A DNA stretch of 64,000 bases from Heptranchias perlo (lineage: Eukaryota): NCBI RefSeq assembly GCF_035084215.1, contig NC_090343.1, positions 33,604,001 to 33,668,000 of the forward strand, read 5' to 3'. The notes under the pieces were generated by a model that was not told the origin of the DNA, ran no database searches, and worked only from the letters and a program-made list of their open reading frames with translations. Numbering within the stretch: position 1 is the stretch's first letter; each line of letters opens with the position of its first letter. A program made the translations under genes and the position numbers. Positions 1,050-64,000 of this stretch are shown here, in pieces.

Positions 1050-4000
1050 CTGGGAAAATCCAAAGAGAGGGGGAGAAAATACATTTAAATATTTTTTTTT
1101 AAATGAAAATCTACATTTAAACCCTTAAATTGACCTACAGGGAATGAAAGATACACATTGTTAAATGTAATCATGAAATTTCAAGTATGCTGGATGACTG
1201 AAGCAATTAAGGATTGTCAGAAAACAAGCTATGAATGATTCAATCATCATGGCATTCTCACCATGTGACTATATTATCAAAATCACACAGTTCATGCCTA
1301 AATAAAATATGTATTAATTCCTCCTACTCTGCTTGTAGTCTTTTGTGAAACTATAAACAATAAATGCTACAATACTGTAAACTTTTATTTACCAAGTTAC
1401 AAATATATTACATTTTCATTTTTGAGCACAGAACAAACATATCAGCATTGAAATAACAGTACACTATGGTGCTAGCAGTGCAAAAGAGTTCAAACCATGC
1501 TATATAATATTCCACATCAGCAATTAATAAATAAAATCACTTAAAGTTAAGAACAACAAAATGCATGCCTTCAACTTCCTAACTTGTTTCATTCAATATG
1601 CATTTTGATATTTACTATATGAAAAACCCAAAATGTTAAAACTGCGACTCTGTCTATCTGATACATGTATAACACAGCAACTTGGACTATTGCTTCTACT
1701 CCCCATCTCTGGTCATGTCTACCTTCAACCAGTTTAGTTTCCTAAAGCAGCACCGTAGTCCTGGCAGTGCCAGGTACAAAATGTGGGCTACTATGGTCCT
1801 AAATACTGTTTGCTTCACCAATGTGTTGTGGAGCTAGCATAAAAGAGCTCATGCACTCAATGAAAACATAAAAAGATTTACATATTTGTTCAAATTCATT
1901 ATTGGTCCAGTGTACAGGAGACAGCTCACTTGCTATGATGGGGAGTCTGAAAGCAATTGTGTTATGCCAATTGTGCTATGCCTGAATTTCCTTGCTGTTT
2001 TACGTCTATTGATCCCTGTTCTTGAATGCATCGTGGCTCATTATAACGACTGCGCCCCCCAGGCTAAAGGGTCGCATACACAGATTTCCTGCAATTACAC
2101 TGATCCAGAACGGGTGTAAAAGTAAGCCCAGAATTTTAGGCGCAGGAGGAAGCAGTCATTTTTCTGGTGTTGTATTGCGATTTGTTGAGCAATTTTTAAA
2201 AAAAAAATCCTCACTGAGACCGGCACAGTAATTTCTGTTTCTTTGAATGCATTTTTATGCCCTCAGTACAAATCACATTCAAATTTGAAAAACTTCTGTG
2301 ATTGTATGTTCTTCAATATGCTGTGCTTAATGTGCACGAGTGATGGTTAGGTGGCTTGAAACTTTAATTCTCATATTTAAAAAAGGAACATATGGCGTGC
2401 TTTCCTCGAGCTCCAGTTGTTTCTGCTGATTTCCGCTTGTTTACACTGATTTTTATGTTCTGGCTAATACTAATACTAATTTAGGTGTGAACAGGCATCG
2501 GCAAAATGGGTGTAATCTTGGGTGTAACTTCCCGATTACATCTACTTAGCTTCATAGGTCTTTTTCAGCTTCAATCTTAGCTATTTCAATACCATTCAAT
2601 GGGTTAGTGCGTCATCTATTTTTCCTTCCAACGTGCAGCACGTTAAACTTTACGAAAGAATTGTAACAAGAAACTTACAGCTGTTATGTGTTCAGACTGT
2701 GAGCCTATCATAAATGTAGTGAATAAAGACTCAGGGCACATGTAGTTCAGAACAGTTCATTTATTACTGAAAACAACTCAAAACACCCTTCATTGCTTAT
2801 ACTAACTGGTTACTGTCTGTCACTCTCTTTCTTCTGCTGATCAAGACATGCTAGTGTCAGATATAAAATATGAAATGGATCAAGAGATCACACCTATAAT
2901 TATTCATTCTTAAGTCAGCATTTTCTTTTATTTTTCAGAAATTGTCCATCTCTGCCACAGATTTCCATTTTGCAGTGGCTCTGGAATGTCACATACCCAC
3001 TGTTTTTTTTATTAACAACCTCTCTAACTTTAAAGTCAAGTTATGATGATATGATGATTCTTATATAATGTACAGAATAATGGTACATTTAAACAAAAAA
3101 AATCCAGATGTGTATATGGTCCTTCACTGCAACTGGGCTTATGCACATCACGTGCCAAGCCAAAAGCAATTCAGAGCTGTGCACATAATTCACCCTGACC
3201 ATTCATTATTTTGTATAAATTTACCAAGTTGCATCAGTGTGAAATAATCTAGCAATTTAGATGCTTTCATTTTTTATTTGTTCTGAACAAAAACATTCCA
3301 ATGCCAAACACACATTTGTTGCAAAATAATGTAAGGCAAATGTTTAGTATTTGAAGGTCACTCAACTGAAACAGAATTTTTAGTTCAGTGCTCTGTTCAC
3401 ATTGTCAAAAACAGTGGTTGTATTGTATGTCTTTAAACTTCTTGTCTGAAACTTTATCTCACTCCTACAAACATTTTTTGTTGCCAGCTTTTGTTTCATG
3501 TTTTCATGGTACAAACAAGTATCATTCCAGTTCATTTCTGACAAAAAAAGTTATCTCAATATTTGAAAGATATAGGTGATGTTTCTTTCTGAATTTTGAA
3601 ACTGTTGCATTGTTAATTTTGTTATCCATTCTTTACACTTCTTTGGCATAGGATAGTTTGTCTCAATTTTCTACATTTTTCTTTCCTCGGCTTTTTCATT
3701 ATTGTTATGGAAATAGTGAACATCTAAAAATAATTTTAATACATTAAAAAGTGGTATAACATACTAAGTAGGTTCACATACCATAATAACCGAAAAATTC
3801 CTTCATAATGACAATTTTTTATTCTGGTTTGATACTTTATAAAGTAATTTCAATTAAAAAGAAAGCTTTTATATTAACTGCTCCAGTATTTTAGATCGTG
3901 CATTTTGGTAGGCATGTGTTGACCTTATGTGGGTTGGGTTGATGTTTTTCATTGTTGCCAATTTCTCCTGCAAGTTCGCATGTGAATTGTAATTTTTTTC

Positions 4001-4620: not shown

Positions 4621-5095
4621 TCATTTTTCAAGTCCTGACTGGTTGGATGTGGATTGTGTTTAGGGTGGTGCTGTCTTTCTGCAATAACTCAACAAATTAC
4701 TCTCGAAGGTGTAGGCTTAAGTGACTGGAATGTTACATAGTTTAACCTTAATTTGTCTATAATTGGTATTTATTAAACTGCTTTTATAAATAGCAATGAA
4801 ACTTCATAATTACCACTTGTGGTTGGAGGGACACCAAAAGACAGATGAACTGACTTTTTTAAGGATTAAAAAAAATGTAAATTGTTTTCAGATAAGGGGG
4901 AGGGTGTATTCTGAGTAAAATATAGGAAAACACAGAGTCACGAGTTTGTTGCAGTTTCCACTGCTAGCACCAATGGAGGTTAGCACTAAAAGGAACAGAA
5001 AATCAAAAAATAAGCACCAGCAGGTTAAGCTGTGGAAAAGAAACTTGTAAACAATTTTACAACACCAAGTTATAGTCCAGCAATTTTATTTTAAA

Positions 5096-5134
5096 TTCAC
5101 AAGCTTTCGGAGGCTTCCTCCTTCCTCAGGTGAA
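5096..5134 (-). ncRNA. Minimal type I hammerhead ribozyme motif (PLE pLTR)
   Basis: Reverse complement of 5175-5213. Confidence 0.75.
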
Positions 5135-5174
5135 CGTTATTGGAAAATTACTTTATAAAGTTTTTCCAACAACG

Positions 5175-5213
5175 TTCACCTGAGGAAGGAGGAAGCCTCC
5201 GAAAGCTTGTGAA
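5175..5213 (+). ncRNA. Minimal type I hammerhead ribozyme motif (PLE pLTR)
   Basis: TTCAC-CTGAGGA-A-GGAGG(AAG)CCTCC-GAAA-GCTT-GTGAA: stem I TTCAC/GTGAA, CUGANGA and GAAA core boxes, stem II hairpin, palindromic AGCU stem III. Confidence 0.8.
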
Positions 5214-6099
5214 TTTAAAATAAAATTGCTGGACTATAACTTGGTGTTGCAAAATTGTTTACAATTGTCAACCCCAGTCCATCACCGGCATCTCCACATC
5301 ATGGCTACCATCGAAAAGAAACTTGTTAGCACTAATATTCTCATTGTTAAACAATGGGCAATAAAATAATGCCATTTAAGGGCTTGGCAATGACTCTTAG
5401 CACCAATTAGCAATGTTTCCTTTTCATTGCAATTAATTATCTCCATTGCCACCTCATTACTCCAGACCTGAGTTATTGGCATCTTCGAGATATGTAAATA
5501 TGTTGGTTAGCAGTATAGCAGCAATATTTGCTATCTTCTATTGCTGAAGGAGCAGCAAGAGTGAAGGCTTCATAGAAGACTCACGGGCACTTATGCAAAC
5601 TACTTCCAGCTCAAGAAGTAGCCACCTGTCCATAATGAAAAATCTAAGGCTCTCCAGGAAGATGGCTGCTGATCCCAGCCATCTCCTGAAGGATGAGCTT
5701 TAGGCAGAGTCTTCAATCAGCACTAGCCTCTCTGGTGCCAAGGTAGCAACAGCTCTGTTTATATGCCACTTGTTTCCGGTCCCAATAGAGTCCTATTTTA
5801 ATATACATGTGGTATGAAAGCAAATACTTTAGACTGCGTATGTTAATGCCTGCTTCTCAAGGAGTTCCCATAATTCATACATTCTCCAAAAACCCAACAT
5901 TACTGAGCTTTTTTGAGGGGTGGAAGGAAGGCTTGATGGCTAGATGTTAATGGCTATGTCTTGCTCCAGTGGTTCATGATATTTCTGCATAACTGGCATA
6001 CCAGGGCATAAGTCTATTACAAAGGCACCCATAGCTGGCCCAGAGTGCTGATCAAGTACTGAAGTGGTGCTTCAGCACCACTACTTGGACTACTTTATC

Positions 6100-15864: not shown

Positions 15865-16490
15865 TGTAGTGACACACCGCTGTTACACTGCATTCTGTAC
15901 ACTGTAGTGACAGACATAGACTGTCACACTGCATTCTGTACACTCTAGTGACAAACATAGACTGCTACACTGCTGTTACACTGTATTCTGTACACTATAG
16001 AGAAAGACACACACCTGTACACTACTGTGACACTGCATTCTGTACACTGTAGTGACAGACATAGACCGCTACACTGTTGTTACACTGCATTCCGTACATT
16101 GTAATGACAGACAGAACGCTACACTGCTGTTACACTGCATTCTACACACCATAGTGACAGACACACACACCTGTACACTGTAGTGACAGACACACACACA
16201 CACCTGTACACTGTAGTGACAGACACACACACACACACACCTGTACACTGTAGTGACAGACACACATACACACCTGTACACTGTAGTGACAGACACACAC
16301 ACACACCTGTACACTGTAGTGACAGACACACACACACACACCTGTACACTGTCGTGACAGACACACACACACCTGTACACTGTTGTGACAGACACACACA
16401 CACCTGTACACTGTCGTGACAGACACACACACCTGTACACTGTCGTGACAGACACACACACCTGTACACTGCTGTCACGCTGCATTCTGT
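15865..16490. repeat. Minisatellite ~28-38 bp (ACACTGTAGTGACAG(AC)nCTGT) with embedded variable (AC)n
   Basis: Direct tandem units visible; degenerate on the left, homogeneous at 16150-16470. Confidence 0.9.
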
Positions 16491-18881: not shown

Positions 18882-18911
18882 ATAGTGTCCAGTTTTGGCC
18901 AGCAAGACACA

Positions 18912-19745
18912 AGGAGAGTCCGAGAGCAGGAGGAGAGTCCGAGAGGTGAGCGCGGTGTAAAAGGAGAGTCCGAGAGCGGGAGGAGAGTCCGAGAGGTGAG
19001 CAGGGTGTAAAAGGAGAGTCCCGAGAGCGAGAGGAGAGTCCGAGAGGTGAGCGCGGTGTAAAAGGAGAGTCCCGAGAGCGAGAGGAGAGTCAGAGAGGTG
19101 AACGTGGTGTAAAAGGAGAGTCCGTAGAGTGGGAGAAGAGTCTGAGAGGTGAGTGCAGTGTAAAAGGAGAGTCTGAGAGGTGAGCACGGTGTAAAAGGAG
19201 AGTCCTGAGAGCAAGAGGAGAGTCAGAGAGGTGTGCGTGGTGTAAAAGGAGAGTCCCGTGAGCGAGAGAAGAGTCCGAGAGGTGAGCGCAGTGTAAAAGT
19301 AGAGTCCGAGAGCAGGAGAAGAGTCCGAGAGGTGAACGCAGTGTAAAAGGAGAGTCCTGAGAGTGGGAGAAGAGTCTGAGAGGTGAGTGCAGTGTAAAAG
19401 GAGAGTCCGAGAGGTGAGCGCAGTGTAAAAGGAGAGTCCGAGAGGTGAGCGTGGTGTAAAAGGAGAGTCCCTAGAGTGGGAGAAGAGTCCGAGAGGTGAA
19501 CGCAGTGTAAAAGGAGAGTCCGAGAGGTGAGCGTGGTGTAAAAGGAGAGTCCCGAGAGCGAGAGAAGAGTCCGAGAGGTGAGCGCAGTGTAAAAGTAGAG
19601 TCCGAGAGCAGGAGAAGAGTCCGAGAGGTGAGTGTGGTGTAAAAGGAGAGTCCCGAGAGCGAGAGAAGAGTCCGAGAGGTGAGCGCAGTGTAAAAGGAGA
19701 GTCTATAGAGCGGGAAGAGAGTCCGAGAGATGAACACAGTTTAAA
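18912..19745 (+). repeat. Composite tandem array forming the CR1 5' UTR (17 x ~31-bp unit with optional ~19-20-bp unit)
   Basis: GAGAGTCCGAGAGGTGAGCGCAGTGTAAAAG counted 17 times plus a degenerate 18th, ending just before the ORF1 ATG at 19759. Confidence 0.9.
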
Positions 19746-19758
19746 TCTAAGGCAAGTC

Positions 19759-20681
19759 ATGGCAGCAGAGCTCACACCCATGATATGCTCCTCCTGCACT
19801 ATGTGGGAAGTCATGGACACTACAGGTGTCCCAGGCGACCATGTGTGCAGGAAGTGTGTCCAGCTGCAGCTACTGACTGTCCGCATTTCGGAGCTGGAGC
19901 TGCGGGTGGATTCACTGTGGAGCACGTTCAGTGAGGTGGTCACACCGCAGGTAAAGATTACGCTGGCCAAAAGGAAAAGGGTGACAGCCAGGCAGAGTAA
20001 AAGGACTAGGCAGGTATAGCAGGAATCCCCCGGGGCCATCTCCCTCTCAAACAGATATACCGCTTTGGATACTGTTGGGAGAGATGGCTTATCAGGGGAA
20101 AGCAGCAAGAGCCAAGTTCGTGGCACCACAGGTGGCTCTGCTGCCCAGGAGGAGAGGAATAAGAGTGGCAGCGCTATATTGATAGGGGATTCAATTGTAA
20201 GGGGAACAGATAGGCGTTTCTGCGGCCACAAATGTGACTCCAGGATGGTATGTTGCCCCCCTGGTGCTAGGGTCAAGGATGTCATGCAGCGGCTGCAGGG
20301 CATTCTGGAGGGGGAGGGTGAACAGCCAGTAGTCGTGGTCCATATCGGTACCAAAGACATAGGTAAAAAAAAAGGGATGATGTCCTGCAAGGTGAATTTA
20401 AGGAGTTAGGAGATAAATTAAAAAGCAGGATCTCAAAGGTAGTGATCTCAGGATTACTACCAGTGCCACGTGCTAGTTAGCAGAGGAACAGGAGAATAGA
20501 CCATATGAATGCGTGGCTGCAGGGATGGTGTAGGAGAGAGGGATTTAGATTCCTGGAACATTGGGACCGGTTCTGGGGAAGGTGGGACCTGTACAAGTGG
20601 GACAGGTTACACCCGAGCAGGACCGGGACCAATGTCCTCGTGGGGTTGTTTGCTAGTGCTGTTGGGGAAGGTTTAAACTAG
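19759..20681 (+). pseudogene. CR1 ORF1 (Cys zinc finger, coiled coil, SGNH/GDSL esterase), disrupted
   Basis: CSSC..CRKC, GDSIVRG, VVHIGT and terminal EGLN*; internal stops and frameshifts. Confidence 0.9.
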
Positions 20682-20812
20682 AATGGCAGGGGGATGGGAA
20701 CCTGAGCAGGGAGACAGAGGAGGGGGAAACAAGGATAGAAACAAAAGACAGAAAGGGAAGAAGCAATAGTGGAAGGCAGAGAAAGCAAGGGCGAAAAACA
20801 AATAGGGTCATA

Positions 20813-23689
20813 GTGCAAAATAAAACTAAGATGACTAGCAATCTTAAAAAGACAAGTCTAAAGGCATTGTGTCTAAATGCGCGAAGCATTCGCAATAAGG
20901 TAGATGAATTAACAGCGCAGATAGATATTAACGGGTATGATATAGTTGTGATTATGGAGACATGGCTGCAGGGTGACCAAGGATGGGAACTGAACATCCA
21001 GGGGTATTCAATATTTAGGAAGGACAGGCAAAAAGGGAAAGGAGGTGGGGTAGCGTTGTTAGTAAAGATGGAAATCAATGCAATAGTGAGGAAGGATATT
21101 GGCTCGGAAAATCACGATGTAGAATCTGTATGGGTGGAGCTAAGAAACACCAAGGGGCAGAAAACGTTGGTGGGGGTTGTCTATAGTCCCCCAAACAGTA
21201 GTGGAGATGTAGGGGAGGGCATTAAACAGGAAATTAGAGACGCATGCAAGAAAGGTACAACTATAATCATGCGTGACTTTAATATACATATAGATTGGTC
21301 AAACCTAATTAGCAATAATACTTTGGGGGAGGAATTCCTGGAGTGTGTACGTAATGGTTTTCTAGACCAATATGTTGAGGAACCAACAAGAGAACAGGTG
21401 ATCCTAGACTGGGTATTGGGCAATGAGAAAGGATTAATTAACAATCTTGTTGTGTGGGGTCCCTTAGGGAAGAGCGACCATAACATGATAGAATTCCTCA
21501 TTTAAGATGGAGAGTGAAGTAGTTGAATCCGAAACTAGGGTCCTGAATCTAAATAAAGAAAATTACGAAAGTATGAGGTGCGAGTTGGCTATGATAGATT
21601 GGGTAACTTTACTAAAAGGGATGATGGTGGATAGGCAATGGCTAATATATAAAGAACGTGTGCAGGAATTACAACAATTATTCATTCCTGTCTGGCGCAA
21701 AAATAAAACAGGAAAGGTGGCTCAACTGTGGCTTACAAAAGAAATTAGGGATAGTATTAGATCCAAAGAGGAGGCATATAAAATTGCCAGAAAAAGCGGC
21801 AAGCCTGAGGATTGGGAGCAGTTCAGAATTCAGCAAAGGAGGACAAAGAGATTGATTAAGAGGGGAAAAATAGAGTATGAGAGTAAACTAGCAGGGAACA
21901 TAAAAACTGACTGTAAAAGCTTCTATAAATATGTTAAGAGAAAAAGATTAGTGAAGACAAATGTAGGTCCCTTATAGTCCGAAATGGGGGAAATTATAAT
22001 GGGGAACAAAGAAATGGCAGAACAATTAAACACATACTTTGGTTCTGTCTTAACAAAGGAGGACACAAATAACCTGCCAGAAATGTTAGGGAACCAAGGG
22101 TCTAGTGAGAGGGAGGAACTGAAGGAAATCAGTATTAGTAAAAAAAAATAGTGCTAGGGAAATTAATGGGGCTAAAGGCTGACAAATCCCCAGGGCCTGA
22201 TAATCTACATCCCAGAGTACTAAAGGAAGTGGCCCTGGAAATAGTGGATGCATTGGTGATCATCTTCCCAAATTCTATAGACTGTGGAACAGTTCCTACA
22301 AATTGGAGGGTGGCAAATGTAACCCCACTATTTAAAAAAGGAGGGAGAGAAAAACCAGGGAATTGCAGACCAGTTAGCCTAATATCAGTAGTGGGAAAAA
22401 TGCTAGAATCTATTATAAAAGATATGATAACAGAACACTTGGAGGGCATTAACGGGATTGGACAAAGTCAGCATGGGTTTACGAAAGGGAAATCATGCTT
22501 AACAAATCTACTGGAGTTTTTTGAGGATGTAATTCGTAGAATAGATAGGGGAGAACCAGTGGATGTGGTGTATTTGGATTTTCAGAAGGTTATTGATAAG
22601 GCCCCAAACAAGAGGTTAGTGTGCAAAATTAAAGCACATGGGATTGGGGGTAATATACTGGCATGGATTGAGAATTGGTTGACAGACAGGAAACAGAGAG
22701 TAGGAATAAACGGGTCTTTTTCCGGGTGGCAGGCAGTGACTAGTGCGGTACTGCAGGGATCAGTGCTTGGGCCCCAGCTACAATATATATCAATGATTTG
22801 GATGAGGGAGCTAAATGTAACATTTCCAAGTTTGTAGACGACACAAAGCTGGGGTGGAATGTGAGCTGTGAGGAGGATGCAAAGAGGCTCCAATGTGATT
22901 TAGACAAGTTGGGTGAGTGGGCAAGAACATGGCAGATGTAGTATAACGAGGATAAATGTGAGGTTATCCACTTTGGTTGTAAAAACAGAAAGGCAGTTTA
23001 TTATCTGAATGGTGATAGATTGGGAAATGGGGAGGTGCAACGAGACCTGGCTTTCCTTGTACACCAGTCGCTGAAAGCGAGCATTCAGGTGCAGCAAGCA
23101 GTTAGGAAGGCAAATGGTATGTTGGCGTTCATTGCAAGAGGATTTGAGTACAGGAGCAGGGATGTCTTACTGCAGTTATACAGGGCCTTGGTGAGGCCAC
23201 ATCTGGAGTATTGTGTGCAGTTTTGCTCTTGTTATCTGAGGAAGGATGTTCTTACCATGGAGGGAGTGCAATGACGGTTTACCAGACTGATTCCTGGGAT
23301 GGCAGGACTGGCGTATGAGTAGAGATTGGATCGACTAGGCCTATATTCACTAGAGTTTAGAAGAATGAGAGGTGATCGCATTGAAACATTAAAAAATTCT
23401 TTCAGGACTAGACAGACTAGATGCAGGGAGGATGTTCCCGATGACTGGGAAGTCCAGAACTAGGGGTCACAGTCTCAGGATACGTGGTATGCCATTTAGA
23501 ACCGAGATGAGGAGAAATTTCTTCACTGAGAGGGTGGCGAACCTGTGGAATTCTCTACCACAGAAGGCAGTGGAGGCCAAGTCATTAGATGTATTCAAGA
23601 AGGAGATAGATATATTTCTTAATACTAAAGGGATCAAGGGATATGGGGAAAAAGCGGGAACAGGTACTGAGTTAGACGATCAGCCATGA
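20813..23689 (+). pseudogene. CR1 ORF2 (APE endonuclease and reverse transcriptase), disrupted
   Basis: LNARSIRNK, DFN, SDH, KSPGPD, QHGF, YLDFQK, QGSVLGP, FVDDTK, LWNSLP across broken frames. Confidence 0.95.
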
Positions 23690-24762
23690 TCATTTTGAAT
23701 GGCAGAGCAGGCCCAAAGGGCCGAATGGCCTACTCTTGCTCCTATTTTCTGTTTCTATGTTTCTATGAGACCTTTACCCCCTGGATGCAGCACAGAGAAT
23801 TGAGGTATAAGGAAACACTGGAAAAACTTGGGCTTCTCAACTTTGAAACGAGGTGATTGTGATGTCTCATAAGGATGAATAATGTAGTAATGACAGAGAA
23901 GATATTTGGAACACTACTTTAAATTAACTGTGACAGTAGGACAGGAGGGCTCAGGTTCAAACTAGTGAAAGGCAAATTTAGGACTGACATCAGGAAGCCC
24001 TTCTTCATGCAAAGATTGATCAACACATGGAATGGACTTCTGGTTGGGATAGTGGAGGCAAACCCTGGAATCATTTAAGAAAGTGTTGAATGCTGGATCC
24101 TGTGATGGAGGGCTGTAGGCTGTTGCCCGATGAATCAACCAGGATTGACTGAATGGCTCTCTTCATTTATCTTGATTTATAATAAGCAAATAATATGAGT
24201 GTGAAATGACAGTCAGCTGATTTATGGCAGGCAGACATTCACCTTTATCAGCTTTTCACTCTGACAGTATTTTATCGTGGCATAGCACTTCTCAATAATG
24301 CTAGTTAAATAATAGTTTTCTTAGTGAAACTGAAAATATTTTTTCATTTGTTTGTAATATCTGCTTATGTTGTTGATTTATATGAAAGAAAAACTGATTT
24401 TTGAAGTGCCTATGTGTATTTAAAATACCTGACAAATGCCTATTACCATCATTTAGTTTGGATCCTTTAGTTCTTTCATGTTAAATTTACAAGATTTGCA
24501 TAGAACGTTTTACATACAAAAAAGGCATTTAATAGTCAATACAATAATGTGAATAAAACTACATTAGTAGTTTCAGTTAAATACTTACGTTTGATCTTTT
24601 ATTTGATCTCATTTTGTCCCCTGATTATATCATGTGCAGAGGATTAATAATTAAAATTGTTACCAAAACTGAAAAAAAAGGCTGTTTTATACATGTAAAA
24701 CTTACTATATAAGAAAGTACTGCTTGTAAGAAAAGTCTTTGAACTGTTGCCTTAACGAACGA

Positions 24763-24905
24763 ATGTGTTGATCAATCTTTGCATGAAGAAGGGCTTCCTG
24801 ATGTCAGTCCTAAATTTGCCTTTCACGAGTTTGAACCTGAGCCCCCCTGTCCTACTGTCACAGTTAATTCAAAGCAGTGTTCCAAATATCTTCTGTGTCA
24901 TTACT
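24763..24905 (-). repeat. Local inverted duplication of 23886-24028
   Basis: 143 bp reverse complement with 5 mismatches by manual alignment. Confidence 0.9.
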
Positions 24906-30685: not shown

Positions 30686-31930
30686 CATAAGAACATCAGA
30701 ACATAAGAAATAGGAGCAGGAGTAGACCATACGGCCCCTCAAGCCTGCTCCGCCATTCAATAAGATCATGGCTGATCTTCTACCTCAACTCCACTTTCCC
30801 ACCCTATCCCCAAATCCCTTGATTCCCTTGGTGTCCATTATCCATCGATCTCAGTCTTGAATATACTCAATGCCTGAGCATCCACGGCCCTCTGGGGTAG
30901 AGAATTCCAAGGATTCACAACCCTCTGATTGAAGAAATTTTTCCTCATCTCGGTCCTAAATGGCCGACCCCTTATCTTGAAACTATGACCTCTAGTTCTA
31001 GACTCTCCAGCCAGGGGGCACAGCCTCTACCCTGTCAAGTCCTCTAAGAATTTTATATGTTACAATGAGATCATCTCTCATCCTTATAAACTCCAGAGGA
31101 TATAAGCCCAAACTACTCAATCTCTCCTCACAGGACAACCCTCTCATCCTAGGAATTAATCTAGTGAACCTTTGTTGCACCCCCTCCAAGACAAGTGTAT
31201 CCTTCCTTAGGTAAGGAGATTAAAACTGTATATAGTACTTCACGTGTGATCTCACCAGAGCCCGATATAATTGCAGCAAGACTTCCTTACTCTAATACTC
31301 CAACCCTTTTGCAATAAAGGCCAACATACCATTTGCCTTCCTAATTGCTTGCTGTACCTACATGTTAATTTCCTGTGATTCATGTACAAGGACACCCAAA
31401 TCCCTCTGACTACCAACATTTCTTAGTCTCCTACCTTTTAAAAAATATTCTGCTTTTCTAATCTTTCTACCAAAATAGATAATTTCACATTTCCCCACAT
31501 TATATTCCATCTGCCACCTTCTTGCCCACTCACTTAACCTGTCTACATCCCTTTGCAGCCTCTTTGCGTCCTCCTCACAGCTTACTTTCCCACCTAGCCA
31601 CCCCACTAGTTACAACCTGCCAACCTGAAAATGACCCGTTTATTCCTACTCTCTGATTTCTGTCCATTAACCAATCCTCAATCCACGCTAATATATTACC
31701 CCCAATCCCATGAGCCCTAATCTTGTGTAACAACCTCTTGTGTGGCACCTTATCGAATGCTTTTTGAAAATCCAAATATACTCCATCCACTGGTTCCCTC
31801 TTATGTACCCTGCTAGTTACACCCTCAAAAAACTCTAATAGCTTTGCCAAACATGAATTCCCTTTCATAAAACCGTGTGGACTCTGCCTAATCATATTAT
31901 AATTTTCTAAGTGCCCTGTTACTATGTCCT
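30686..31930 (-). mobile_element. CR1 3' fragment with internal deletion
   Basis: ORFs with YLDFQKAFDKVPH, WQMEYNVGKC and QRFTRLIP; (CATAAGAA)n tail. Confidence 0.9.
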
Positions 31931-32820
31931 TAATAATAGATTCTAGTATTTCTTGGTCATGACCAAAAAGCTGAAAGAGTTAGCAGGTTTTCCTACAAGT
32001 CATTCAGTCCATCGTAGAGCACAGCTGAACAAAAAGCAAAGGCAGCATTTAAATATCAATCTTTATAGAGTCAGAGCCCAAAGAACGCCATAATGCTAAG
32101 AAGTATTAGTGTGTTGTCCTGTGGATTTGCAGGTAGTTCTTGGGACAAATATGAATCTCCAGATAGCTTCAAGTCATGTTTGCTTATGGATTAGTAATGC
32201 AAACAGTGGTGAAGTACACCCAGCATTTAAGAGAATGAGCTTTGTGAATGACCAGGATGTCACTGTTTAAAGAATATTCTGAGGTGTAATTAGCATGCTG
32301 TCATGGGTTGACACCCAAAGTTCAAGTACATATATCCGATAATTCATTGTACATGGTAGGAAGTTGAGCCCAGTTAGGTGTCATTGCATTTGCTGTTCAC
32401 ACAAAGGATTTTTTTTTAACAATTAAAAACAATCAGTCATTATAAATAAAAGGCAGAGCCCATAAGTTAACCTGAATTGAAAATGTAAATTATTCATTTA
32501 AAGTTATCGGGGGTTAAATTGGGTAACCCCTGAAAACGGACGCTGGGATTGTGGTGTGCGATTAACTCGCGCTCATTGGTTGCGATGCAGGCAGCACGTA
32601 ACATCCATGCTGCCTGATCATTTAAATGATTGCTGCGTGCAGCCAGCGCTACCTGCGCTGTTGATTGGCTGCATGCACCAGCAGGGGGCCCTGATATCAG
32701 GAGTGGCTAGCACTACTTAAAGGCAGCCTGTACCTCTTAAAGGGGAGGTGCATTGTGGCTGCAGGAAGCACTGGAATTCGTTTGGCAACTAACTGTGATG
32801 CAGGATAGTGAGGAATAGCT

Positions 32821-50872: not shown

Positions 50873-53005
50873 GGGGGTTAAATTGGTTAACCCCCGAATC
50901 CGGGCGCGGGCATCATAGGGCTCGATGTTACCAGGCCTGCGGGTTTCCGGCGGGTTGGGTTTCGGGAGCGTGGCCAACATGCTCGGTGAAATTAGTGGGT
51001 TGCCCGTGCGATCGTGGCAGGCAATTCACTAATAGGAATCAATTACCTGCTCCTCCGGGGTCCACGCTGCTGGCCTGCGCGTCGGGCGGGCTGCGCATGC
51101 GCAGTACGATCTGTCAGCTGGAGGCTCTCTAGTTAAAGGGGCAGTCCTCCACTGACAGATGCTGCAACCAATGGAACAAATTTCAGCATGGAGCAGCCCA
51201 GGGGGAAGGCTGCTCCCAGTTTAATGATGCCTCACCCCAGGTATCATCAGATGGGGTGAGGAGGAGGGCGAAGACAGAGATCTTCCACCCGGCGGGTGGG
51301 AGGAAGCAGCCAGCCTCTGCCACCAAGAAGGCCTGGCCCGAGGTGGCAGAGGGGGTCACCTGCGCAACCAACATATCGCCCACCTGCATACAGTGCAGGA
51401 GGCGCTGCAATGACCTCAGTAGGTCAGCCACAGTGAGATCACAAAGTCTTTCCCCTACACTCCATCTGCCACAACACTGCCCCAACCCCACATCTCCTTT
51501 GGCACCGCCAACACTACTCTGTCACATCACCCCTCATACCCACTCAAACCCCATCCTCATCTTACCTCCACCTACTCACCTCGCCAGTACTCATCCTGCC
51601 ACTAACACGCGACCCAATCCTCATACAATCTCATGGCTCTATCCCATACTCACCCTCTCGTGCATCTCCCTCACGGCCAGCCTCACTCAACCTGCCACCA
51701 CCTGTGCTGCAGCCACAGGGCATGCATCACATATGTGCAGTAGGCAGCGTAAGGCAAATGTTTCGTGAGCATGAAGGGGGTGCACAAGGGTGTCGGAGGG
51801 TTTGCCATGGGTGTTACCTATATTGAATTTCAGAGCTACAAACAGCACACATTATATTGGCACCACCACTGCCATGTCTCCGCGCATCCTGTCTGTTGTG
51901 TCCAATAATGCCCGCTCCTGGGTATCACTATGAGGACCCACCACTGATGCCACCCATCGTGTTACTGCAGAGTAGGTGCAGGTGTATTTGCAGGGCTCTT
52001 CCGCGCAGACCACTGAGAGACATCGGCGGTGTAGCCGGCTGCACCCTGGAAGGATGCGGAGGAGAAGTTGTGGAGGGCAGTGGTGACTTTGGCAGCGACA
52101 GGTAAGCACTTGGTGCTGGGGCCAGCCAGGAGCAGCTCGGCATGAAAGAGCCTGCAGATCTCCATGACTACATGTCGAGCGAATCTGCGCCTCCGTGTGC
52201 ACTGCTGCTCGGAGAGGTCCGGGGAGCTTCGCCTCGGTCTGTGGACCATGTGGCGAGGGTAGTGCCCTCTGCGATGCGTCTCTCTCTGCGGTAGCCCTCC
52301 CTCCTGCTGTGCAGGTGGGCGTGCAACAACACCGTGTTGGGGGCTCCACGTCTCTGCGGCGGACCGCGTGGACTGCGAGGCTACTGGGGCTGGTCATGCT
52401 GTTCGTCCTCCGAGGGTGTCCACGCACCACCCATCTGGCAGGTGTTGGTCTGAGGGGTTGTGCAGGGTAGGTGGGTGGTTCCTCGGACTGGGGCTGCGGT
52501 TTCGTGTCGGTCTCTCCTCTGGCGTGGTGGGGGGCAGGGGTTGCCCTATGTGACGCGGTGGCCTCCTGCGTGGGTGAGGGCTCTCCCTCGTGGAGTGCAC
52601 CTTGGCAGCTGCCACAGGCTGCTGGCTGCAACACGCCTGGTTGGAGACAGACTGTTTCCCCCAGTGTGTGAAACAATCTGCGATGAAGGTAAAATCCCAC
52701 ACTTCCTCTTTTGGCAGCTGATTCAGCTCATTAACTGACCTCAACAAGCAAGGTAAGTACTCTCAAGTGGAACCCCGCTGGCTTTAATTGCCTGCAGGAT
52801 TCCCACCAGCGGGGGCCACGCACGCAGCCCCGCACGTCATCGGGGAACCCGGAAGTGGTCGGGATCGCGGCGCGATCCGGTCACATGACCTCATATCGGG
52901 ATTTTCGGGGCCCCCCCGCTGGAAACCCGCAGGAAACCCGACCCTAAAATCGAGTCCATAGTGTGTGATTAACCCGCGCCTGGTGCTTCCGATGCAGGCA
53001 GCAGC
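50873..53005. mobile_element. Left-end fragment of Harbinger family A interrupted by Harbinger family B
   Basis: 50873-50917 joined to 52961-53005 matches the left end of the 32510 element (GGGGTTAAATTGG..GATTAAC.CGCGC..CGATGCAGGCAGC). Confidence 0.75.
50918..52957. mobile_element. Harbinger family B deletion derivative (Myb exon + strand from 51188, transposase N-terminus - strand 51962-52249)
   Basis: TIRs GGGCTCGATGTTA / TAAAATCGAGTCC; TSD ATA; AKVTTALHNFSSASFQ present but no DDE core. Confidence 0.85.
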
Positions 53006-54020
53006 CAGGCCTGTCTGTGTTGTTCTCACCAGCTTCTCACTTCTACGTGTTGACTGAATGTGGTTGGTTGTAGCTGAAATTTAGAAAATCACATTGGACT
53101 AATACAACTGGAAATTCTGCGTCATTTTCATATTTAATAGAATTTTTGAGACCCAGGATGTGGACTTAAGATAATTTTCTGCTAATGTTCTGGAGTAAGA
53201 CTGTCAAAGTTTCATTGTCAAACTATATTGTTGTATAGTCCAAACATGGAGCATGGGCCAACTAGAGTGGTACAATCCTTCTGAAAATGGAGTAAGGACA
53301 GCCTCCAGTTGTGAAAGGTCCAACTGGGCTTACCCATGTCACAACTGCAAGGAGAATGTTTTGTTCACAAGTAAACCTTTTTTTAAGTCTCATTCTAAAA
53401 CGATTTAACTAATTTTTTTCTACCACCCTCCCCTTGGCTCTGTGCTGAGAACAAAAACTGTTTACTAAATGGGTGTCTCTGTTTTCAATGTGCTAAACTT
53501 CTTGAAGGACTGTACAAGATTGTAATTGCTGTACATTAGCAGTCGGCCTGCTGTCAGTTATTTATTGCATTATGCAAGTGAGCGTTTTCCTCTCCATCAA
53601 TTTTCTGCTTTTAGAAGCACCTGACCTGCCAAGTGTCACTCGTGTCGAGTGGCAAGTGCACGTTTTGGTTTTATACTGCAATAAATTGTCATTTAAAAAT
53701 ATGTCATTTAAAATAAATACAGCTTCAAATGTTTAAATAATTTTGTAATCTGTATAACTATTGCTGATCATAAATGTCATTCCAAACATTTGCTGATGTT
53801 AACAATTCTGTTACCTCTGGTCTCCTGAGGTGGTGATTCAATTCTATGGGTTTTGGCTGCTCTCCAGGTCCTACAGCCCAGGTCTCATTCTTTATTCATG
53901 AGCCTAGACTGTGAGTGTCAACTGGTTTCTTAGTTGTGGGGGCTGTGTCACGTTTAAGGATTTTAAAGATTGTAAACAATTTTACAACACCAAGTTATAG
54001 TCCAGCAATTTTATTTTAAA

Positions 54021-54059
54021 TTCACAAGCTTTCGGAGGCTTCCTCCTTCCTCAGGTAAA
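54021..54059 (-). ncRNA. Minimal hammerhead ribozyme motif
   Basis: Reverse complement of 54263-54301. Confidence 0.75.
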
Positions 54060-54262
54060 TGTTCAGGAGCTCCTCGAAGCCTACGCATTTATACATATAG
54101 AACAATACATGGTGTTTACAGAATGCCCCTGCAACTGCCCGTTGCCAAGGCAATCACCGTGTTCAGACAGAGAGGTGCCACGGGCAGTTGCAGGGGCATT
54201 CTGTAAACACCATGTATTGTTCTATATGTATAAATGCGTAGGCATCAAGGAGCTCCTGAACA

Positions 54263-54301
54263 TTTACCTGAGGAAGGAGGAAGCCTCCGAAAGCTTGTGA
54301 A
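54263..54301 (+). ncRNA. Minimal hammerhead ribozyme motif
   Basis: TTTAC-CTGAGGA-A-GGAGG(AAG)CCTCC-GAAA-GCTT-GTGAA (G-U pair in stem I). Confidence 0.75.
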
Positions 54302-56779
54302 TTTAAAATAAAATTGCTGGACTATAACTTGGTGTTGTAAAATTGTTTACAATTGTCAACCCCAGTCCATCACCGGCATCTCCACATCACGATTTTAAAG
54401 ATCACTTAGAGAAAAAATTTGGAAAAGAGTTACATTTAGATGTTTGGTTTAAAAGTAAAGTGTATTCACACAAGTTTTTTAAAAAAGCACTGAGATGAAA
54501 GATAGTTAAAATGCTAATGAATTCAGCAGTGAAGTTGTTTCCCAAAGACAGAAAACAATAAGCAATTCCTTAGCTTGGGTCAGTAATCGACAAATACTTC
54601 ACACTAATTGTATTGGAAAGCAAAAGCATAACCCTCCCTTCTGGTTGTGGACACAGGGAGATAAGAAATTGGAAGAAACACATACTGACAGTCTTTTTTT
54701 TAAACAGTGAGCTGTCACCAAACTCGGAAGGTAATAATGCAGAAGTTATTTAGTTTATGTCAAGCAAGGTGAGGTGGGAAAGCGTAGTGGGCTCATTATT
54801 TTATATTATTACGTGAAGACAACTTGTACTGATTACAATGAATCCAATGACAACTGTTGCTCTGTACGTTCATTTGCTGACTATGATATAAAGCAGCTTA
54901 ATGATTCGTATTTGGCCTTATTTTACCAAGTGATTTCTCAGTCTGCCTTAGAAAAGATTGAAGAGATGCAAAAGACACAATATCCAGTTCAGATGATAAG
55001 GGGTTTCTATTGTTCCACTCCTGGATTACTCTTATCATATGGTTAGGCATTGGGCAGCATGGGCCCACTCCTAAATGCACGATGCTCAGAACACTTGTGC
55101 AAATAATCAGCACCGCTGTACCTGAGGGAATACGTAAGGTAAGACCTGAATTTGTAACAGACTATTATGGATGAGCCCAATCCTATTTTTCACTAATATT
55201 CACACACTTAGGACACTAATAGGGGTCAATAGATAACAATCAGGAGAGATAAATTCAGCTGATGTATTTCCCCCTCCCTAGCTCAGGAACTTTGAGGCTA
55301 CCTGTAGCAGCTTCCACACCATTACTGCTCAGCTGAAGGATTGAATCTAGAACACTCCCTGGTCTTCACATCATATGGTATTTTTACCAGGTTTGATCCT
55401 GGACTGTATGATGTTACAGTGAAAGTTCTACAATTTGAATTGACATCACTGCGGTGGGAGAGGGGATATTATATTATTGGCCAAGATGCTTGCTTCTAAT
55501 TTCTATTTGGTGAATGTGCACATGAGCATTGGATGATGACTCAATCAGCTTTGATGGCTCCTGTGGTTAACTGACTCGTTTGCTAGTGTAAGTTCACACA
55601 TGGAGAATAGTATTTAAGTGATGTACTAAAGGATTACTGCAGCCCATAGAACCTTGTGTCAGTGTAAGTCATTACCCTTAGGAAAAGATGGTTATAGTGA
55701 TTAAAATTGGGGGAGGAAGGAAAAATTGATTTTATACACTGGGAGCATTCTTCAGTGAATATTGTGGTTTACTCTTAGTCTTCTCAAAATGATTTTGGAT
55801 ATATCTATGGATATAAAACTAACAGTATGATGAATGTTTAAAGATCGATACGGGAGGAACTCAGTATGTCACCAGTTCCACGCTTGCTGTCACCTGCATC
55901 CCGTTAAAATAAATGACAGGTTGGGCAAACTTCAAAGCAATGCCAGTGAAAGTATTGTATTTTGTTTAGCAATATATAAAGAGTCCTAGTAAGAAAAGAA
56001 AAATATTCTATTTTTCTTTATCAAGATTTAATTAAAATGACTACTGTATTTGTCTCAATTGTTTAAAATAATGGCTCCTTTATAACACATTGAAGTACAT
56101 GTGTTGGTTTCTAATAATTTATCCTTAGAACCATTCTTATGGGTTTCCCTGCTCATAATCAAGGGAATTCCCTCAGTATTTGTCATGCTAGAATGCTCTG
56201 GTCTTGTATTTCTGCATCTGGTTCAGAAATAACGAGAAATGTTCTTGCAAAAGTGTAGAATAAATAATTGACCACCAAACATAATAAATTCAATTTTGTG
56301 AGCTTATGCTTCCTGTGTGGAACTTCACTTGACAGGAGTGTGAATTGGAGAACTGGCTGCGGGGGTCACAATGCCCGATATTCTAGTGATTAATTTTTAC
56401 TAAAATTAAAGTTTATCCTTAGATGTCATCAAGAACTTGCTAATTATTACATGGGGTTGGTAAGTTCCTCCTAACTATATATACTTGTTGAAGGTATTGT
56501 CAAATTTCAGGTGAAACTCTACAATGAGATTTGATGCATGCTAACCCCAGAATTATGCATTTAAAATTCTTGACATTTGCATTCTTATAAAGAGGCCAAT
56601 GCCCTAGACTGCTGCAACTTTTGGAGTGAACCACCCTCCAGTGGCTTCTCCATGCAGCCGCACAGCACCACATCTTTCTCCCTGTCCCTTTGACGGACAT
56701 CCAAGATGCAGCCATACTGTTCCAAAAACATTATTGCCTCAATTAGGAATGATGTCTACACAACGTGTATGAGCATACG

Positions 56780-58274: not shown

Positions 58275-58399
58275 GTGAGTACTCCCTGCTTTCATCCAAT
58301 CAATTCAGCATCTCCAACTGGAACTAAGGAAAGTTTAAAATTGTTTAAAAGTATCTTTTTCCAGACATTTTTTTAAAAGTTATGGAATTAAAACATATA

Positions 58400-59116: not shown

Positions 59117-60161
59117 ATTTTGTTTGTTGGCTTAGTGGGTAAATGTTCTGTATTGTTCAGGAAAGTCCCAGGTTCACTTGTTTGTCTCAAATGATTTAGC
59201 CGATCTCCGTCAAGGTAAAGGTAGGGGTACCATAATGGTAGGTTCAGCTCCCCTGGGCTAGATAGGAAAAACAACCACCAGTGTTCCTGATCCTGATCAT
59301 AGTTCAGCAACTCCTATTAGAAAGTGCATATGTCTGGAATTCTACTGAAACTAAGATTGGACTCGGCTGTGATGGCCCCCAAGTTAAGAAGCCATCTGAC
59401 ACTGACTATGCTCATAGGTCAAGATTAGCCATTTTGCTGTGGTTGTCGAGGATGGTGAGTATCTACGGAATCATTCCCCAGTGTGAGTCAACACCTTCTG
59501 GAGAGGAGAAAAGAAAGCTGAAGGATGATAAAAATAAAAATACAAAATTATCATCCTGTTAATAACAAATTACCCCAGTGCTAGGTACTTGTAATCTTTT
59601 TGATCATTCTATATTTTCTTTCTCTTTATTTCTTCCATCGTTCTAACCCAAATGGTAAATTTGTCTGTTCTTATTGTACAAATATACAATATGTTAATTC
59701 AAACCTTTACTAAGTGTCATTTGGGTGAAAGTCATTGACTGTGATGAACTTCTGTACTGCCACAGTACAAATATTAACTCTAGTAATCCACACTGACAGC
59801 TGAGGAAATGATGATTTTTCATGTGCCTCTGGAGCAAGTTTAGTTTGTGCAGTATTTTAAAACAACATTGTTACACCTTGCATCAACTGCGCTGATGCAG
59901 ACTAAAAATATTTTGAACATAAATTAGAGCTTATTAGATAAAATAAATCCAAAGTAAATTACTGACTTAAATACACAGTTTCAAATGCATTCTCAGTAAC
60001 TTTCCGAGGATTACATTAGTTTTTTTTGCACCAAAATTGATAAAATATGCTCTCTTCGTGTTATTCAGATAATAGTGTGAATTTAGAAATTTTTAGTGGT
60101 TCTCTACCCATCCTAATTTAGACTTTATCGTACACAATGTGAGAAATTTGAATAAATGGCA

Positions 60162-60225
60162 CATTTGAAACTGTGTATTTAAGTCAGTAATTTACTTTGG
60201 ATTTATTTTATCTAATAAGCTCTAA
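60162..60225 (-). repeat. Perfect 64-bp inverted copy of 59924-59987 flanked by a 12-bp direct repeat
   Basis: Exact reverse complement; TAAATGGCACAT at 60153-60164 and 60223-60234. Confidence 0.95.
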
Positions 60226-61551: not shown

Positions 61552-61763
61552 GCCCTGACATTATAGATGCAATACGCCCTGACATTATAGATGCAATACA
61601 CCCTGACAATATAGATGCAATACGCCCTGACATTATAGATGCAATACGCCCTGACAATATAGATGCAATACGCCCTGACATTATAGATGCAATACGCCCT
61701 GACATTATAGATGCAATACGCCCTGACATTATAGATGCAATACGCCCTGACATTATAGATGCA
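61552..61763. repeat. 24-bp minisatellite GCCCTGACATTATAGATGCAATAC, ~8.8 copies
   Basis: Near-identical tandem units. Confidence 0.95.
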
Positions 61764-63496: not shown

Positions 63497-64000
63497 GGGC
63501 TCGATATTAGCAGGGCGGTGGGTTCACAGCGGGGGGTCGACTGGGCGCGTGAGTAACGCACCCATTGAAATCGGGGTGCTCCGCACGCAATTGCAGCTTG
63601 ATTGGAGCCACTTACCTGTGCTTCTAAGTTTCCTGCTGGTTTGCTGTGCAGCGGGCAGACTGCGCATGCGCAGCATAGGCTGTCAGCTGGAGGAGCCCTA
63701 TTTAAAGGGGCAGTCCTCCACTGACTGATGTTGCAGAAAATAGGAAAAATTACAGCATGGAGCAGCCCAGGGGGAAGGCTGCTCCCAGGTTTAATGATGC
63801 CTCACTCCAGGTATTATTGGATGGAGTGAGGAGGAGGTGGAGGACAGAGATCTTCCACCCGGCGGGCGGGAGGAAGCAGCCTGCCTCTGCCACCAAGAAG
63901 GCCTGGCTCGAGGTGGCAGAGGGGGTCACCTGCACCATCAACATATCGCCCACCTGCATACAGTGCAGGAGGCGCTTCAATGACCTATGTAGGTCAGCCG
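63497..64000 (+). mobile_element. Harbinger family B, left part (continues beyond window)
   Basis: TIR GGGCTCGATATTA preceded by ATT; highly similar to 50918-51430. Confidence 0.85.
63757..64000 (+). CDS. Harbinger Myb/SANT-like protein exon 1 (open to window end)
   Basis: MEQPRGKAAPRFNDASLQVLLDGV..KKAWLEVAEGV..CIQCRRRFNDL, no stop; upstream CTGCGCATGCGCAG and TATTTAAA. Confidence 0.7.
   Translation, partial: MEQPRGKAAPRFNDASLQVLLDGVRRRWRTEIFHPAGGRKQPASATKKAWLEVAEGVTCTINISPTCIQCRRRFNDLCRSA

Follow-up and report, generated by a model that had tools for sequence, protein, structure and literature searches.

Typical insertions of Penelope-like elements (PLEs) are inverted, truncated at the 5' end and tailed on a single side (PMC8557442; PMC3846280), and both inverted pLTRs with a one-sided tail and pairs of hammerheads on opposite strands have already been published. 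A 2014 report on Schistosoma described dual minimal motifs on opposite strands, separated by ~100-700 bp (PMC4209133), and in that report single minimal hammerheads show no activity as monomers in vitro and low activity as dimers. A CX2-5CxxC linker marks Neptune and Nematis and is absent from Penelope/Poseidon (PMC8557442). For PAc, an element of Anolis carolinensis, it has been found that both strands are nicked and extended, that reverse transcription starts at two internal sites whose interval equals the tail, that the template needs the first 172 nt of the ORF, and that the hammerhead motif cleaves only with protein and is dispensable for insertion in vitro (PMC11167929).

Here we analysed a stretch of 64,000 nucleotides of Heptranchias perlo DNA (the 64-kb window, whose first letter is position 1), in which an insertion at 5035-5326 is probably a doubly 5'-truncated, head-to-head Penelope-like insertion that arose by two-ended priming, was likely made once at this place, and is predicted to be a dead end. 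Its features, together with a candidate donor in the host flank, are as follows.

3834..3850 (-): candidate donor of the apex filler, in the host flank 1.2 kb upstream; 17-nt exact match
5035..5048 (+): left TSD of 14 bp, of which the final 4 nt fit the inverted arm's end as well (microhomology)
5049..5147 (-): inverted, tail-less, 5'-truncated pLTR arm; outer end within ~2 nt of the tail-less end of the sister insertions
5085..5090 (-): AATAAA of the inverted arm, mirror of 5219-5224
5096..5134 (-): minimal type I hammerhead motif of the inverted arm, mirror of the plus-strand motif
5148..5161 (unstranded): 14-nt apex spacer with a 12-bp palindrome, likely a locally templated filler
5162..5264 (+): direct, 5'-truncated pLTR arm
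5175..5213 (+): minimal type I hammerhead, by motif anatomy against the min-HHR description in PMC4209133
5219..5224 (+): AATAAA in the direct arm
5265..5312 (+): tail of 48 nt, on one side only, which runs through an ATG at 5301
5313..5326 (+): right TSD, exact copy of 5035..5048

An earlier note on this DNA had described an almost perfect palindrome with arms of ~110 bp, and a repeat search bore this out, with inverted arms at 5040-5147 and 5162-5269 (108 nt, 96% complementary, 14 nt apart) that contain an ungapped core of 103 nt each (5045-5147 / 5162-5264) mismatched at two positions, 5059 and 5139. The note was also correct in seeing essentially no loop, because the 12-bp palindrome (5150-5161) inside the spacer folds and leaves a loop of 4 nt in the predicted RNA. 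The fold of the whole element is one rod (MFE -176 kcal/mol, z -26), and none of 200 shuffles was equally stable. Likewise confirmed were the AATAAA after the ribozyme, with its mirror, and the 14-bp TSD, which is exact and has a chance probability of ~5e-6 over 30x30 boundary positions; the insert is non-coding, as the note had it, its longest ATG frames being 4 and 9 aa. Three features were absent from that description, namely the 48-nt one-sided tail as a part of its own, carried by the direct arm and missing from the inverted arm, two sister insertions, and a match between the spacer and host DNA. The ATG at 5301 is likely the start of the ORF, since it reads M-A-T-I and two near full-length homologs start MASMDT and MPYLDT; ~12 nt are retained past it. 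Judged from the ends seen in contigs, those of this Penelope family mostly stop at 5301-5305, and the present copy continues beyond.

A motif scan recovered 6 hammerhead cores in the whole window, 2 of them in the insertion, at 5180 (+) and 5129 (-), exactly where the earlier note had placed one on each strand. On the plus strand, a 5-bp stem I (5175-5179/5209-5213, UUCAC/GUGAA) is followed by the core CUGAGGA (5180-5186), an unpaired A5187, a 5-bp stem II (5188-5192/5196-5200), GAAA (5201-5204) and AGCU, a palindrome that stands in for stem III in these hammerheads, and cleavage is predicted after U5208. This anatomy fits the PLE min-HHR of PMC4209133, in line with the minimal type I assignment. 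The call rests on motif anatomy, since Rfam gave no hammerhead match: at gathering score there were 0 matches in the 64 kb, and at E up to 10 there were 22 in 4900-5500, all below gathering scores and 0 from hammerhead families. These 22 matches, to miRNA and other hairpin-shaped models, were rejected as generic, sub-threshold hairpin matches. Two further attempts were set aside, an intermolecular hammerhead dimer fold, uninformative in that it gave just a 6-bp AAGCUU duplex (-4.3 kcal/mol), and a sigma-70 promoter scan, irrelevant to a eukaryote.

Viroid-like RNAs, as defined here, are distinct plus and minus RNAs that each fold their own hammerhead. A rod-like fold with a hammerhead motif on each strand had led the earlier note to a viroid- or retrozyme-like layout. 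An RNA of this type would have to cut itself in both polarities and to replicate or circularise. The motifs are indeed present in both polarities; this is, however, a trivial outcome of the palindrome, whose two strands are nearly the same molecule, and the hammerhead is predicted to stay unfolded in either. According to equilibrium fold predictions, forcing it costs 69.3 kcal/mol in the whole insert (either strand) and 64.4 kcal/mol in RNAs ending just past the ribozyme, and the pairing probability of stems I and II is 0.0000 in the hairpin versus 0.92-1.00 in either arm alone. Each strand of the insert holds one sense hammerhead, positioned after its own complement, so that no unit-length monomer could be released between two cuts. 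Retrozymes, for their part, are defined in PMC7761336 by tandem direct hammerhead repeats, with at least 2 hammerheads on one strand, and not by head-to-head units, and the weak in vitro activity of minimal hammerheads (PMC4209133) points the same way. The layout proposed by the note was thus not upheld, and we regard a replicating or circularising RNA of this kind as having a negligible probability. Instead, the prediction is that neither hammerhead of the hairpin can open: read-through transcripts of both strands would zip into a ~100-bp duplex that blocks hammerhead formation, and would then behave as plain dsRNA and not as a replicon. Heavy A-to-I editing is known from palindromic repeats and lizard Penelope (PMC5625713), and by analogy such transcripts would most likely be A-to-I edited.

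The remaining four hammerhead cores of the window belong to two sister insertions.

47802..50317 (unstranded): sister insertion B; 12-bp TSD; tailed 476-nt arm (-); tail-less 1,982-nt arm (+) with ORF
53959..54402 (unstranded): sister insertion C; 12-bp TSD; tail-less arm of ~210 nt; tailed arm of 174 nt plus tail

All three insertions share one layout, TSD, tail-less arm, apex, tailed arm, TSD, and compare as follows with what is described for EN+ PLEs: (i) an inverted 5'-truncated pLTR with a TSD around the whole unit is present in 3/3 copies (14, 12 and 12 bp); (ii) a tail is found at one end only, with lengths of 48, 38-39 and 36-37 nt, the first of which exceeds the published range of 30-40 bp; (iii) the pLTR contains a minimal type I hammerhead motif, by motif anatomy a predicted ribozyme; and (iv) the end belongs, via B, with which it shares 119/122 nt, to an element that encodes RT and has a GIY-YIG-like C-terminus. 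The Penelope-like origin and the inverted pLTR proposed by the earlier note are therefore supported, as sister B shares the end and carries the RT and all three copies have the inverted arm inside the TSD. From the hammerhead core to the tail, 119-121 of 122 nt are identical among the three, and their tail-less arms end within ~2 nt of one site. The apexes, by contrast, differ in 3/3 copies, each junction string being present once in the window; in C the upstream subfamily sequence differs as well. The tailed arm is not a simple copy of the other arm, because the longer arm is the tail-less one both in B (1,982 vs 476 nt) and in C (210 vs 174 nt).

Several side observations concern the sisters. 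Despite being 98-99% alike from core to tail, the copies diverge sharply upstream of the hammerhead core (5162-5179, 47937-48021, 54180-54267), B and C showing 57 identities, 19 mismatches and 21 gap positions over ~85 nt, so that several subfamilies have one conserved end module in common, a pattern suggestive of selection on the module or module swapping. At the B junction (48324-48328), TTGGA fits the short arm and the L-D codons of a homolog's RT frame, with 2-5 nt of microhomology. A 22/24 match to the TSD and arm start at 58336-58359 was rejected as an isolated AT-rich sequence without family context.

The long arm of B holds a 5'-truncated, frameshifted ORF (the frame shifts near 49103-49108) with an RT, matched by Pfam RVT_1 at E 1.6e-11, and a GIY-YIG-like C-terminus. 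Among the best 120 listed of 963 matches, none of which carries a clade name, its RT is 94% identical to Heptranchias perlo proteins and 82-89% identical to those of Scyliorhinus torazame. The frame at the C-terminus is similar to HTH_animal/GIY-YIG clusters of the Atlas; Pfam gave no GIY-YIG match in B, even at E 10 in this frame. It contains a CX4CxxC linker, CRGNLCKTC, followed by VVY-LIRCRKGC...YIG, and thereby fits the pattern of a CX2-5CxxC linker before a C-terminal GIY-YIG with CCHH that is expected of Neptune, a motif also common to Nematis. On these sequence grounds, the parent element of the 5035-5326 insertion is likely a Neptune-type Penelope-like retrotransposon. An RT-based metagenome scan yielded 9 loci, from 121 candidates, at 29-36% identity, too distant for use. 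The family RT is also included in a shark gene model, epn2 isoform X2 (P0006; 98% identity over 71% of the query), which is likely an annotation fusion with an intronic copy.

The apex of the 5035-5326 copy appears to carry a trace of its origin. Its 14-nt spacer occurs twice in the 64 kb, at the apex and as the reverse complement at 3834-3847; extended by 3 nt into the left arm (5145-5161), it is the exact reverse complement of 3834-3850 (17/17 nt). For this match, a post hoc observation, an analytic expectation of 1e-4 was obtained, and composition-matched 31-mers of the window reached 17 nt in 1/352, 1/344 and 0/303 cases within 1.5, 2.5 and 5 kb, respectively. Among palindromic shuffles of the spacer, 0/19,906 non-identical draws reached 17, with ~94 of 20,000 draws left out as identical (0.5% if counted). 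Reading the spacer as filler also removes a 2-nt indel that a pure inversion needs between the arms. The B and C junctions had no local donor, their best matches (10 and 9 nt) being at background level. Templated end-joining repair copies nearby DNA. Since the 14-nt spacer matches host DNA 1.2 kb upstream, the apex of this copy was likely built at its own locus by such end-joining, and the match speaks against re-insertion, because no resemblance to the surrounding DNA would be expected of an element that came from a master hairpin at another place. Among the papers listed by the literature searches, none dealt with fold-back stubs of this kind in sharks or with fillers of local origin at the apexes of Penelope insertions; the supplements of PMC4209133 and PMC11167929 may contain fish or shark motifs and end maps relevant to this.

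The abundance of this apex beyond the window was assessed from the contigs of 4 of 8 listed runs, all of one sample, mapped to 5100-5560; summed contig depth is not copy number, and was used as an order of magnitude and, for the apex, as an upper bound. In the two DNA runs (X1/X2), flank depth was 13.5/18.6 and the hammerhead bin (5180-5195) reached 3.1/3.6 million, which indicates, in order of magnitude, roughly 10^5 ends and a very abundant Penelope-type family. The apex bin (5148-5163) stood at 3,562 (X1) and 4,653 (X2), i.e. 0.115% and 0.130% of the hammerhead bin, or 250-264 times flank depth, an upper bound on copies; the neighbouring bin (628,000) could account for all of it by spill-over. 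There were 97 joints between left and right arm, and the 15 listed all link left arm to right arm elsewhere than at this apex, the deepest of them having a depth of 896 (X1) and 1,175 (X2), 63-66 times flank, and none being dominant. In sequence, the joints are readable as short fold-backs of subfamilies B and C, and several recurrent apexes as tight stem-loops. Among the 24 listed of 449 loose ends, those at 5301-5305 go on in sequence that is unrelated (in the DNA runs, agreement was 0.36-0.38), which identifies this position as the usual tail end at many loci. Exact pattern scans of viral and of metagenome contigs gave 0 loci each.

That the palindrome is a post-insertion DNA rearrangement or an assembly artefact might be argued from the contig pieces listed (32 of 34,955), none of which spans the apex. 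On the other side, the TSD encloses both arms in 3/3 copies, 2 differences separate the arms of this copy, all three insertions have one and the same tail-less end, one contig in each of the two DNA runs joins the tail to the right flank, and joints between arms occur at many other places; we hold this explanation to be highly improbable.

The earlier note had also considered a self-propagating non-autonomous family, in which the stub would be transcribed and re-inserted in trans by the family protein with its apex kept. The 250-264-fold depth of the apex bin could be taken in its favour, as could the 42-66 times flank depth of some other short apexes, the mobilisation in trans of a passenger by pLTR sequences alone in A. 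vaga (PMC3846280), and the existence of non-autonomous PLE derivatives (MRC1; retrozymes). Nevertheless, the apexes differ among all three window insertions, the apex bin amounts to ~0.1% of the hammerhead bin in 2/2 DNA runs, none of the 15 listed joints is dominant, and the spacer matches the flank of its own locus. Furthermore, the copy is devoid of nearly all the ORF-proximal sequence that the PAc template needs, and in so large a family short, microhomology-favoured apexes would be expected to recur by chance. The proposal was not supported and is, in our estimation, very unlikely; a unique fold-back junction in each copy, which the note itself had named, together with a lack of cleavage and transcripts, as what would speak against it, is what the three window insertions display. 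Several short apexes at the 5' edge of the hammerhead (5131-5141 joined to 5174-5185) recur at 42-66 times flank depth, and may represent hot spots or small bursts. There is only a slim chance that a minority of the shortest stubs, with their apex at that edge (~40-70 times single-locus depth), were re-mobilised in trans as a hairpin mini-family, with the 5035-5326 copy in one burst of at most ~250 copies.

This leads back to two-ended priming. What the locus and its sisters contain is a TSD, two arms, a tail on one of them, and copies with the same outer ends and other apexes; the succession TSD, tail-less inverted arm, apex, tailed arm, TSD is expected when two cDNAs, one from each nick and start site, join at their truncated ends. 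By analogy with PAc, a GIY-YIG nuclease would nick both target strands 14 bp apart; each 3' end would act as primer, with reverse transcription beginning at one of two fixed internal sites, of which one would yield the tail and the other none; and both cDNAs would stop ~15 nt beyond the hammerhead. From the match to the flank, it appears that one end would have copied 14 nt of host DNA from 1.2 kb away and that the two ends would have been joined through 1-3 nt of microhomology. As PAc is of the Poseidon clade, this analogy crosses clades. A counterpoint is that the two arms of this copy are truncated at almost the same place in the template, something not required of independent cDNAs.

Equal arm lengths and an apex with a 12-bp palindrome also fit self-priming, in which the cDNA or an antisense template would fold back on a short palindrome and be copied to a hairpin, to be resolved by a nuclease that leaves the one-sided tail. 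Such a route has been proposed for the junction palindromes of Adineta vaga Penelope elements (PMC3846280), the tail has been ascribed to nuclease resolution of an intermediate (PMC8557442), and the recurrent contig apexes readable as stem-loops are in keeping with it. However, both sisters (2/2) have the tail on the shorter arm, which self-priming could yield only with additional trimming and, in B, a ~1.5-kb loop; the apex palindrome of the 5035-5326 copy already exists in the host flank; and the PAc data link the tail to two RT start sites, with both strands extended (PMC11167929). We therefore consider self-priming unlikely. Under two-ended priming and self-priming alike, the 5035-5326 copy would be a dead end. 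If the family behaves like PAc, the copy would be without the protein-binding region, given the ~12 nt kept past the ATG. The alternative raised by the earlier note, an extreme truncation product, is the one that gained support.

Two runs guessed as RNA (X5 and X6, 2 of 4 such runs listed) contain ends of the family. Their apex bins amount to 0.066% and 0.037% of the hammerhead bin, and the right flank is not covered; as contigs cannot show level, strand or ends, these runs carry no weight here as evidence of expression. At position 5226, a T>C change on the plus strand (A>G on the minus strand) accounts for 3.36% and 0.68% of depth in these two runs, and for 0.17% and 0.22% in the DNA runs. 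From contigs only, this excess is a weak hint at A-to-I editing of family transcripts.

Other repeats were observed in the window. A perfect 64-bp inverted repeat (59924-59987 / 60162-60225) lies around a 174-nt AT-rich spacer, has no clear TSD, and is possibly a MITE or a local inverted duplication; a second inverted repeat of 143 bp (23886-24028 / 24763-24905) has arms 96.5% alike and ~730 nt apart, and both are unrelated to the Penelope family. LINE fragments at 20657-22837 match AP-endonuclease (Exo_endo_phos) and RVT_1, with related pieces in opposite orientation at 30686-31951. Tandem-repeat arrays occupy 15874-16490, 18911-19745, 43040-43375 and 61552-61763, and a dispersed 356-bp repeat forms a pair (51075-51429 and 63644-63999) of 88% identity.

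Overall, the locus is most likely an ordinary insertion scar, and its worth lies in its use as a mechanistic specimen. The three copies in 64 kb lend support, from the genome, to priming at both ends from two fixed start sites, earlier shown in vitro for another clade. In one of them, the apex seems to preserve a trace of templated end-joining from local DNA. So many insertions in one genome permit a census that could decide between two-ended priming and self-priming for Penelope-like elements. The hairpins may also be a bulk source of dsRNA for editing or silencing.

In L1 twin priming, the second primer starts internally and the two parts are mostly non-overlapping, whereas both arms of the 5035-5326 insertion start at the element's end, giving a palindrome. 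The two have in common that both ends of the cut target are extended by reverse transcription and then joined, with an inversion inside the TSD (bioRxiv 10.1101/2024.12.14.628481). Metazoan non-LTR retrozymes (PMC7761336; bioRxiv 10.64898/2026.07.22.740005) resemble this insertion in being non-coding, 150-300 bp long and related to PLE pLTRs, with a type I hammerhead; they are head-to-tail tandems with two hammerheads per strand, from which a monomer is released and circularised, and the present units lie head to head with one hammerhead per strand. With the metazoan PLE min-HHRs of PMC4209133, the insertion shares a conserved core, an unpaired nucleotide before stem II, the G10.1-C11.1 pair, a 5-bp stem I, a palindromic 15.2-16.2 and no stable stem III; the two motifs lie 40 nt apart here (5134 to 5175), below the Schistosoma range of that source. 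PAc shares with the family two preferred ends about a tail apart, AT-rich targets and the use of both strands (PMC11167929), and differs in being of the Poseidon clade and in starting its ORF inside the hammerhead, the likely ATG lying here ~90 nt after the hammerhead and the RT having a Neptune-type linker. The inverted-pLTR PLEs, Adineta vaga Pen2a and others (PMC3846280; PMC8557442), are like this insertion in the inverted 5'-truncated copy at the 5' end, the TSD round the unit, the one-sided tail (30-40 bp in theirs), the junction palindrome, and a pLTR and tail that reach the ORF start. Unlike them, the 5035-5326 insertion has arms of ~100 nt without an ORF body, a 48-nt tail, and an apex that is apparently local host filler.
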